Position numbers and translations under genes: made by a program
In this document: one piece after another, positions 22,516 through 23,643 of the stretch
How the letters are laid out: each line of letters opens with the position of its first letter
Position numbering within the stretch: position 1 is the stretch's first letter
The notes under the pieces: generated by a model
The model's database searches: none
What the model saw: the letters and a program-made list of their open reading frames with translations, nothing else
Told to the model about the DNA's origin: nothing
Assembly (NCBI RefSeq): GCF_014651875.1
Contig: NZ_BMXS01000002.1
Span: 228,446 to 260,445 of the forward strand
Direction of reading: 5' to 3'
Length of the DNA stretch: 32,000 nt
Source: Litchfieldella qijiaojingensis
Lineage (GTDB): Bacteria; Pseudomonadota; Gammaproteobacteria; Pseudomonadales; Halomonadaceae

Positions 22516-23643
22516 TCAATCCAGCCGAAAGCACAGGGTCACACATGTCCCCTGCCCAGGATGGCTTCTCAAAAGAACCGATCCGCGGTGGGCAGTCAGA
22601 ATATCCCTTGCCACACTCAGCCCAAGACCTGTCCCAGCGCCGACGCTACGCGTTGTGAAGAAAGGTTCGAAAACACGTGCCATGACCTCTTCAGGCATTC
22701 CGCAGCCATTATCTTCGATATTGATCTCCCACACGCCATCACGAAAACGACTTTCGACATTAATGACGCCTTCTCCATCGATAGCTTTGGCGGCATTGTC
22801 GAGAACATTGTAAAAAGCTTGAGACAATTTCGCTGGATGACCTTCAAGCTCTGGCAGTTCACTTAGATGCGATTTGATGGATAGTGTCTGATGGTGCTCC
22901 GCCTGAAGGAGGTGGCAAGCAGTCGTTAGTAATGCATTCAGGTCGCATGAGGTAAATTCGGCCTGATCAATATTGGAAAAGGTTCTCAGGTCCAACACAA
23001 TACCCGCGATTCGCTGCGCACCGCTTCTCGACTCCCCAAGCAACGCACGAAAATCTTCGAACACGATTGCCAAGTCGTCGTCAAGGGATAGTTTGGCTTC
23101 TATCTCATCGAGATAATCCCCTGCCACTGCAAGATTGCTGCCGATATAGCCAAGCGGTGTATTGACTTCATGAGCCACCCCTGCAGCCAATTGGCCGACA
23201 GCCCGCAACCTGGCACTCTCATAGAGTTGCTGCTGGGCTTTTTCGATCACCTTGACCTGCTCTTCGACCTGCTGCTGCAGTTGCTCGGATAATTTCTTGT
23301 AGCGTGCCTCCGAGGCCTGAAGCGCGGCATTCCGCTGTTGCAATTCAACGTAACTTGCTTCAGTAACATCAAGGTGCAAATTGGCCGCAAGGCGGTATTT
23401 CCCCGCATACAAGAGAAACAGCTCGAATAGCTGTATCGCTGCCCGATGCCGTTCTTTGGGAAGCGTCGTTTTCAACCATCCCAGAGTATCCAGGTTGAAC
23501 TCAAGGGGTGAGACTGACTCGTCAGGATCCTCGACCAGCTCCACATCGGCCCCACTCAACGTACTAAGCAATTGTACGAGACGCGCCCTATGGCTCGGTG
23601 CCAGGAGGTCATCCAGACTCGGATCGTCTTCCAAATTACTCAT
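22516..23643 (-). CDS. Soluble histidine kinase: unassigned N-terminal domain - coiled coil - HisKA - HATPase_c
   Basis: H-box QLAAGVAHEVNTPLGYIGSNL. The His codon CAT falls at 23172..23170 on the minus strand, and I checked it. N-box NVLDNAAKA, G1 EDNGCGM, F/G2 FEPFFTTRSVGAGTGLGLS. No TM segment. The start at 23643 (MSNLEDD) overlaps the GTPase stop by 8 nt (ATGAGTAA). The alternative start at 23664 overlaps by 29 nt. Confidence 0.85.
   Translation of the reverse strand: MSNLEDDPSLDDLLAPSHRARLVQLLSTLSGADVELVEDPDESVSPLEFNLDTLGWLKTTLPKERHRAAIQLFELFLLYAGKYRLAANLHLDVTEASYVELQQRNAALQASEARYKKLSEQLQQQVEEQVKVIEKAQQQLYESARLRAVGQLAAGVAHEVNTPLGYIGSNLAVAGDYLDEIEAKLSLDDDLAIVFEDFRALLGESRSGAQRIAGIVLDLRTFSNIDQAEFTSCDLNALLTTACHLLQAEHHQTLSIKSHLSELPELEGHPAKLSQAFYNVLDNAAKAIDGEGVINVESRFRDGVWEINIEDNGCGMPEEVMARVFEPFFTTRSVGAGTGLGLSVARDILTAHRGSVLLRSHPGQGTCVTLCFRLD

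Follow-up and report, generated by a model that had tools for sequence, protein, structure and literature searches.

Cell signalling has two great families of switches, the small Ras-like GTPases and the two-component systems, and to our knowledge hard-wired links between them in bacteria are known essentially only from the actinobacterial conservon, in which the signal path is unclear. Here, we consider a stretch of 32,000 nucleotides from Litchfieldella qijiaojingensis (contig NZ_BMXS01000002.1, positions 228,446 to 260,445; hereafter, the window), in which the gene for a soluble class-I histidine kinase of 375 aa, HK2 (22516..23643, minus strand, from its open reading frame, translation, and Pfam matches), overlaps the end of a gene for an MglA-family small GTPase. 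What is new is the identity of the N-terminal domain of this GTPase-coupled kinase, which its homologues point to as a remnant of the PocR sensory domain.

The nearest described system is the conservon (AGPS), which consists of the CvnA kinase, the CvnB Roadblock protein, CvnC, and the CvnD GTPase (PMC4316618, PMC12236503). Its GTPase is a Group 2 MglA without the intrinsic arginine, its kinase is a membrane protein with a HAMP domain and an LPxR tail, and it includes Roadblock and DUF742 proteins and no response regulator (PMC4316618, PMC12236503). Group 1 MglA proteins are defined by the intrinsic arginine together with a TVPGQ motif (Wuichet and Sogaard-Andersen, PMC4316618); coupling to MglB within four genes is typical of them, though not universal, as 59 of 449 are orphans (PMC4316618). 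On the kinase side, the signalling helix is a helix of about 40 residues with a polar, E-R-T-like center that lies between a sensor and an output domain, and it commonly connects PocR, PAS, or GAF sensors to kinases (PMC1592074). PocR itself is a predicted ligand sensor, as Anantharaman and Aravind (2005, Bioinformatics 21:2805) are cited in PMC5847659 and PMC1592074. A literature search, which had most subscription journals outside its reach, returned no paper on a pair formed by an MglA-type GTPase and an HK2-like kinase. The soluble histidine kinases to which HK2 belongs form a conserved family that appears not to have been described.

Descent and layout of the HK2 N-terminal domain

The kinase core of HK2 is complete, with the H, N, G1, F, and G2 boxes all present. 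Pfam recognizes HisKA at residues 149-227 (27.3 bits against a cut-off of 26.9) and HATPase_c at residues 269-374 (E 1.2e-25), and the phospho-acceptor His158 (codon at 23170..23172, minus strand) lies in the H-box AHEVNTP, where H158, E159, and P163 are invariant. There is no transmembrane helix in the protein, its highest Kyte-Doolittle 19-residue mean being 0.94, which bears out what the preliminary description of the locus had read from the sequence by eye. HK2 is present as a single copy in the L. qijiaojingensis genome. In one orthologue, from Modicisalibacter luteus (P0007, 341 aa), the sequence past the G1 box is unrelated to that of HK2, as would result from a frameshift within the ATP-binding domain or from a faulty assembly.

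The reduced N-terminal domain and the start of the helix that follows it occupy residues 1-93 (23365..23643, minus strand; delimited from AlphaFold2 models and hhalign comparison with PocR-type orthologues). The preliminary description had called this an orphan domain that resembled no recognised sensor, and with respect to direct searches of the libraries this stands: residues 1-110 have no match in Pfam, NCBIfam, or the PDB sequences by direct, phmmer, or profile searches, and neither HK2 nor residues 1-110 match the Pfam PocR model (PF10114; gathering score 23.9 bits) at E up to 0.1. A weak RGS-like Pfam match (E 0.013, far below cut-off) was dismissed as chance. Searching through intermediate sequences, however, reveals a reduced PocR domain, so that the domain is no orphan. 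A six-frame search of the L. qijiaojingensis genome with PF10114 returned no match.

The evidence comes from distant orthologues of 483-490 residues, whose genes overlap those of GTPases 45-46% identical to the one in the window. These kinases carry a complete PocR sensory domain, with PF10114 covered over its whole length at E 2e-17, 1e-16, and 4e-14. Among 57 GTPase-coupled kinases, 13 match PocR in Pfam at E up to 0.001, the best at E 7.7e-22. Aligning the reduced family with the PocR-type N-termini by hhalign gives 95.8% probability and E 7.4e-9 over 108 columns in three blocks, in which the first helix and strand of the reduced domain fall on the start of PocR, the hairpin 'EFNLDTLGWL' (strands beta2-beta3) falls on PocR 'IxYDGRxLGxxxLG', and the long helix falls on the last PocR helix and the linker. 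A profile built from the reduced seed sequences only scores the PocR-type kinases at 25-31 bits, and canonical PocR proteins of Gammaproteobacteria align with the reduced domain in like manner. Because the distant orthologues in the same gene context carry full PocR, we assign the N-terminal domain of HK2, on the strength of these alignments, as a remnant of PocR (a PAS-like domain) at about half its size, not as a full member of PF10114. This descent nearly, but not fully, reaches the point at which the preliminary description would have given up its reading, namely a confident assignment to a known small-molecule sensor family: HK2 fails the PocR Pfam model and the half presumed to form the ligand pocket is gone, so that the domain is not confidently a working sensor of that kind. 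For annotation, the region should be recorded as a PocR remnant that current Pfam models miss rather than as an unknown domain.

The reduction is stepwise across the family when measured from the first helix to an invariant histidine: 168-171, 123-125, 95-106 (the Geomonas/Geobacter type), 83-91, and 76-78 residues, with 77 in the window protein. The parts lost are the Cys-rich core (C..Y, AC, HPCF) and the 'PxSLLxVDP...MPR' segment, together about 90 residues; between L13 and H90 the window protein has no cysteine, against four to five in most PocR-type orthologues. Several full-PocR kinases from metagenomes (L172, L181, L186, L176, and L178) keep four or five conserved Cys along with a His (C..Y, AC, HPCF), which suggests a metal or redox site in that subfamily. 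An intermediate 'long' form (L022-L027, P0147-P0158), found in Methylomicrobium, Methyloprofundus, and other Gammaproteobacteria, has an insert of 12-13 residues between the first and second strands, which looks like an extra hairpin kept from PocR.

AlphaFold2, run on family alignments, models the domain with a mean predicted local distance difference test score of 87.5 for residues 1-110 and 87.8 for residues 1-88, and both models have the same topology, namely a helix, three strands, and a second helix, which begins at residue 63 and in the longer model continues unbroken to residue 109 at least. Helix alpha1 (residues 10-30, 23554..23616, minus strand, by DSSP on the models) bears the conserved L10, L13, and L14 of an 'LxDLL' motif. 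The strands span residues 34-37, 44-49, and 52-59 (23467..23544, minus strand, from the models and the alignment), a region in which 47 of 57 sequences have Gly55 and 43 of 57 are acidic at position 52. No solved PocR structure was found by sequence. With neither model did Foldseek reach E 0.001 against the PDB; its top match was a KH domain at E 0.03. VIA-align gave best Z scores of 5.3 and 5.2, which lie within the tool's range for common arrangements; with the trimmed model GAF domains were commonest (Z 4.8-5.2), and these matches show no more than a PAS/GAF-like sandwich. Look-alikes in the ESM Atlas (PocR and GAF) were used as leads only and then tested independently. The preliminary description had raised a Roadblock, longin, or GAP-like fold (GAP, GTPase-activating protein) as a candidate; the modeled arrangement of helix, three strands, and helix and the PocR homology stand in its place.

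The second helix, alpha2 or junction helix (residues 63-109, 23317..23457, minus strand, one continuous helix in AlphaFold2), carries the sequence K-Y-R-L-A-A-N-L-H-L-D-x-T-E-A-S-Y-x-E-L, and a motif common to full and reduced forms can be written as K-[YA]-[RL]-L-[AT]-[AS]-x-[LM]-H-[LH]-x-x-[VT]-x-E-[SA]-[YF]-x-E-L. Its histidine, His90 in the window protein (codon CAC, 23374..23376, minus strand, by alignment column count), is invariant in 56 of 56 GTPase-coupled kinases. By contrast, six canonical PocR proteins of Gammaproteobacteria that are not coupled to a GTPase lack this histidine and most of the motif. On this conservation, it is the junction helix with its invariant His90, and not the small globular part, that we regard as the most family-specific element.

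Almost every complete reduced form (about 40 sequences) has a distance of exactly 68 residues from His90 to the phospho-acceptor histidine; in the full-PocR forms it is 41, and no intermediate spacing was seen. The two spacings differ by 27 residues; L179, a sequence of reduced size that also has the 41-residue spacing, is an apparent exception. The coiled coil that the preliminary description had seen leading into the H-box (residues 96-148, 23200..23358, minus strand) is upheld: AlphaFold2 gives helix from 63 to at least 109, and for residues 110-148 the heptad-spaced, invariant Leu101, Leu108, and Leu118 argue for its continuation. With the further motif S111-E112-x-R114-Y115, conserved in 40-44 of 56 sequences, this linker is compatible with a signalling helix.

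Pairing of HK2 with the MglA-type GTPase

The GTPase gene (23636..24304, minus strand; 222 aa from the ATG at 24304) ends in CCT GAT GAG TAA, with its stop TAA at 23638-23636, and HK2 begins ATG AGT AAT, with its ATG at 23643-23641, as read on the minus strand of 23560-23760. The two share an 8-nt start/stop overlap, ATGAGTAA (23636..23643, minus strand), and the earlier claim that HK2 starts within the last codons of the GTPase gene is confirmed by this direct reading. This start is supported by 13 orthologues in which Met1 aligns; a GTG further upstream, at 23664, is not conserved.

Overlaps of this kind are the rule in the family. We examined 64 named loci that carry the N-terminal domain, from Modicisalibacter, Litchfieldella, Vreelandella, Phytohalomonas, Halomonas, Pseudomonas, Stutzerimonas, Marinobacter, and a metagenome-assembled genome (MAG) of Moraxellaceae. 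The junction is an 8-nt overlap of the form NTGNNTRA in 44, a 14-nt overlap in 12, a 1-nt overlap in three, a gap of 1-2 nt in three, and a larger apparent gap in two, both in MAGs; the overlap of GTPase and HK2 genes was seen in L015, L017, and L019 too. Because the overlap recurs across named genome loci, chance can be rejected as its origin, and the arrangement favors co-production of GTPase and HK2 through what would be translational coupling.

The pairing is equally strict at the level of gene order. A GTPase gene lies immediately upstream of the HK2-type kinase on the same strand in all 64 named loci and in 16 of 16 further loci, among them representatives of six more gammaproteobacterial families and two contigs from metagenomes. 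The reverse approach started from the GTPase alone, which fetched 80 metagenome loci, 68 of them with at least 250 nt downstream of the GTPase. The N-terminal domain follows the GTPase stop in 58 of these 68, a count from a profile iterated to convergence (the seed-only profile gave 37, and drift is possible in principle), and it starts within about 110 nt save for a few outliers. The other 10 have GTPases no more than 52% identical, mostly 40-43%. Among 400 sampled gammaproteobacterial genomes, seven have the N-terminal domain, and the GTPase occurs in the same seven and as one truncated copy beside an Rhs-like gene. That copy (L035, genome G452) is the only GTPase homologue without HK2 in the sample; it is internally truncated, adjoined by an Rhs/YD-repeat-like open reading frame, and still preceded by a REC gene, and it resembles a decayed cassette. 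An exhaustive search of representatives gave 11 matches, two of which, giant repeat proteins, were rejected since their scores were sums of weak repeats. No fusion of the GTPase and kinase genes was seen in about 140 loci, among which fused forms were not searched for systematically. The tight and probably translationally coupled pairing proposed in the preliminary description therefore holds at every examined locus with the HK2 N-terminal domain.

In Pseudomonas and Marinobacter, the order of the cluster is kinase, REC-HD_5 regulator, lone REC, GTPase, HK2, REC-MshEN-T2SSE ATPase, PAS kinase, REC, and REC-PAS-GGDEF-EAL-REC. The ATPase after HK2 is kept in nearly all named loci, and the lone REC before the GTPase is absent from the Halomonadaceae loci. 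Compared with its relatives, the window cluster is a deletion variant that lacks the lone REC, the REC-MshEN-T2SSE ATPase, the PAS kinase, and the small REC, and only 145 nt (22371-22515) separate HK2 from the GGDEF-EAL gene. The ATPase has no orthologue anywhere in the L. qijiaojingensis genome, in which the best match is a PilB/GspE-like protein, 31% identical and without a receiver. The reduced order recurs in a congener (G007, locus L005), where the pair still overlaps and 84 nt separate HK2 from the GGDEF-EAL gene; a second congener (G030) retains the ATPase; and in a genome of another genus (G052) a cassette-type ATPase is likewise missing, and the GTPase and HK2 genes remain together, overlapping by ATGA. 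The ratio of nonsynonymous to synonymous substitution rates (dN/dS) is about 0.1 for the N-terminal domain, the kinase core, and the GTPase, an approximate value as dS is saturated. Because the pair is kept after loss of the ATPase and is under purifying selection, its gene content and substitution pattern mark it as the persistent minimal unit of the cassette. HK2 is accordingly the best candidate partner of the GTPase, because the pairing is conserved and survives the loss of other cassette genes.

The GTPase is an MglA homologue (E 3e-39 to Myxococcus xanthus MglA, 6hjh) and the only one in the L. qijiaojingensis genome, and its 222-aa form occurs in databases. Its arginine beside the G2 threonine (R53-T54) aligns with the intrinsic arginine of MglA and is invariant in 27 orthologues, as is the G3 motif T78-V-P-G-Q82; by these motifs the protein is Group 1-like. 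Roadblock/MglB (PF03259) is absent from the L. qijiaojingensis genome (best E 0.8, below cut-off) and from the operon. All 27 orthologues have a P-loop of the form GPA[LMQ]SGKT, with alanine at the position equivalent to Ras Gly12 and MglA Gly21. In view of how Ras G12 and MglA G21 mutants generally behave, this alanine suggests a slow, GAP-independent cycle, which would suit a subunit-like role better than that of a GAP-driven oscillator. All 27 also have a conserved C-terminal extension of about 30 residues, which M. xanthus MglA lacks and which is a candidate docking element for the kinase.

The other genes of the operon, all on the minus strand, complete the order PAS kinase, REC-HD_5 regulator, GTPase, HK2, and REC-PAS-GGDEF-EAL-REC (Pfam). 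The PAS histidine kinase HK1 (25767..27083, minus strand; Pfam) is the first gene of the cluster, and shares 57-62% identity with the kinase that opens the clusters of Pseudomonas and Marinobacter. It is followed by the response regulator of REC-HD_5 (HD-GYP) type (24433..25770, minus strand), a candidate phospho-acceptor by its Pfam domains and its orthologous position in the Pseudomonas and Marinobacter clusters, and the gene after HK2 encodes the REC-PAS-GGDEF-EAL-REC protein (19161..22370, minus strand; Pfam and comparison with L017, L019, and L038). The signalling operon (19200-26900) is a low-GC island, with GC of about 0.49 (range about 0.46-0.53) against 0.60-0.64 (0.58-0.64 at the widest) in the flanks, and its distribution is patchy (7 of 201 Halomonadaceae genomes searched). 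Because of the low GC and the patchy distribution, horizontal acquisition of the operon is a compatible reading.

Possible links between the GTPase and the kinase

How might a GTPase act on a kinase with so small an N-terminal domain? We regard it as an even call that HK2, with its PocR-remnant N-terminus, takes the GTPase as its main input through docking on the cap or the His90 helix. Of PocR, the remnant retains the first and last helices together with a single strand and a single hairpin, and it would run unbroken into a helix of fixed length, giving a putative chain from the junction helix through the signalling helix to the phospho-acceptor helix. With the presumed ligand pocket gone, the GTPase would become the main input: MglA, probably in its GTP-bound form, would dock on the remnant cap and/or the junction helix around His90, docking would shift the register of the coiled coil, and HK2 would toggle its balance of kinase and phosphatase activity. 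Through the receivers of the operon (REC-HD-GYP and REC-GGDEF-EAL-REC), HK2 may then set the turnover of cyclic di-GMP, and the start/stop overlap would serve the joint production of the two proteins. The membership of the family, the origin of the domain, and the genomic coupling rest on the comparisons above; where the GTPase docks, whether docking depends on the nucleotide, and which way control runs are what we infer. The stronger version, in which HK2 is a G-protein-gated histidine kinase with GTP-MglA as a stoichiometric subunit and direct two-component input controlling cyclic di-GMP, is put forward tentatively, and we lean slightly against it. If it is true, a pilus-type ATPase would be controlled as well in most species, the reach would extend at least to Pseudomonadota and Geobacter relatives, and the repeated shrinking of PocR would record the hand-over of input from a small ligand to a GTPase.

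Several points weigh against GTPase docking on HK2 and should be kept in mind. Adjacency and overlap indicate a functional link and co-expression, and neither contact surfaces nor contact itself; direct contact between HK2 and the GTPase is something that we infer rather than a result of experiment or computation. The one complex prediction, which combined a pair of HK2(1-110) chains with the GTPase, GTP, and Mg, scored 0.62, 0.63, and 0.65, one control with an unrelated protein of 212 residues scored 0.65, and the prediction counts neither for nor against binding. The full-PocR orthologues have the same GTPase coupling beside an apparently intact sensor, and because of this the GTPase need not be the sensor's replacement; the N-terminal domain, moreover, descends from a small-molecule sensor family. 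The lone receiver and the receiver-fused ATPase present in most cassettes could be the true partners of the GTPase. The Shine-Dalgarno sequence of HK2 is weak (GGA about 10 nt upstream), which is compatible with coupling, and the possible drift of the iterated profile bears on the metagenome count given above.

The strongest of the other explanations is an indirect link, which we hold to be unlikely though deserving of attention: the N-terminal domain would be a structural or dimerization cap left over from PocR, and HK2 and the GTPase would share a pathway without touching, for example, if HK2 phosphorylates receivers that in turn attach to the GTPase or control it, in the way of RomR, FrzS, and AglZ with Myxococcus MglA, or if the GTPase acts on the pilus-type ATPase. 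Receiver-domain proteins are among the known binding partners of M. xanthus MglA (PMC4316618), most cassettes have a lone receiver just before the GTPase and the REC-MshEN-T2SSE ATPase just after HK2, and the globular part, with three strands, is tiny. Yet the Halomonadaceae loci have no lone receiver, the window genome and G007 have lost the ATPase as well while the overlapping pair remains under purifying selection, and conservation of the N-terminal domain and His90 helix matches that of the kinase core, which one would not expect of a mere leftover.

An improbable alternative is that HK2 is still a sensor of a small molecule or metal, with paired His90 residues in the core of the coiled coil that bind metal or sense pH and with the GTPase acting downstream or in parallel. 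Descent from a predicted ligand sensor, the weak structural likeness to GAF and PAS cores, and the invariant histidine at a probable core position of the helix are what one would look for in such a protein, but about 90 residues are gone, and with them the HPCF motif and all the cysteines that the PocR-type orthologues conserve; a sheet of three strands flanked by two helices on the same face would leave no enclosed pocket, and the strict pairing with the GTPase is left unaccounted for. Last, a very improbable option is the one suggested by the preliminary description, that the domain is an MglB-like module (Roadblock, longin, or of GAP or guanine nucleotide exchange factor type) that regulates the nucleotide cycle of the GTPase. 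A genome without MglB may need another regulator, and Roadblock proteins do occur among the weak structural matches, with M. xanthus MglB at Z 4.3 and LokiRag/Ragulator at Z 4.3-4.7; these scores, however, tie with those of dozens of unrelated folds and fall below the GAF matches, the helix-three strands-helix of the models differs from the five-stranded Roadblock (helix-strand-strand-helix-strand-strand-strand) and from longin topology, the positive homology is to PocR instead, and the alanine at the Ras Gly12 position in all 27 GTPase orthologues argues against GAP-driven cycling.

Taking docking of the GTPase on HK2 as the working model, the gating of a histidine kinase by a bacterial G protein becomes directly testable on a stripped PocR sensor, a helix of fixed length, and one invariant histidine. 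The carriers are culturable (Pseudomonas, Stutzerimonas, Marinobacter, Halomonadaceae, and Geomonas), and the window genome offers a minimal natural system from which the ATPase branch has already been lost.

Comparison with described systems

The window domain can be aligned with PocR (PF10114) over the first and last helices, the first strand, and the central hairpin, and, like PocR as described in PMC1592074, it lies N-terminal to a signalling helix, here a putative one, and a histidine kinase. It differs in failing the Pfam model, in being about half the size, in lacking the conserved Cys/His core, and in leading into a junction helix with a histidine, an element absent from canonical PocR proteins. 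The PAS and GAF histidine kinases with a signalling helix (PMC1592074) likewise present a sensor, a continuous helix, and the helix of the dimerization and histidine phosphotransfer domain, and weak GAF-like structural matches and a conserved SExRY motif in the linker of HK2 go with this; in HK2, however, the sensor is reduced to three strands that are predicted to leave no pocket, and the linker is of fixed length (68 residues from His90 to His158) and bears a family-specific, invariant histidine.

The polarity module of MglA/MglB/RomR-RomX, known from Myxococcus, Thermus, and Bdellovibrio (PMC4316618, PMC3441718), has in common with the present system the P-loop, Arg53, TVPGQ, and NKRD of the GTPase, and most cassettes here also associate the GTPase with receiver proteins and a PilB/GspE-type ATPase. 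Unlike that module, the window genome has no MglB, the GTPase has alanine for glycine at P-loop position 21 and the C-terminal extension of about 30 residues, and the invariant neighbor is a histidine kinase, a component that the Myxococcus module does not include.

As in the conservon, an MglA-family GTPase is tied to a histidine kinase in one operon, and the idea of joining a G protein to a two-component system is common to both. No DUF742 protein, the counterpart of CvnC, was seen in the Pfam scan of the operon. Where the conservon has a Group 2 GTPase, a membrane kinase, and a Roadblock protein, the system described here has a Group 1-like GTPase, a soluble PocR-derived kinase, no Roadblock protein, and several receivers. 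It is a GTPase-linked two-component system with a PocR-type kinase, a simpler and widespread version that consists of one GTPase and one soluble kinase, encoded by overlapping genes and operating with no Roadblock GAP.

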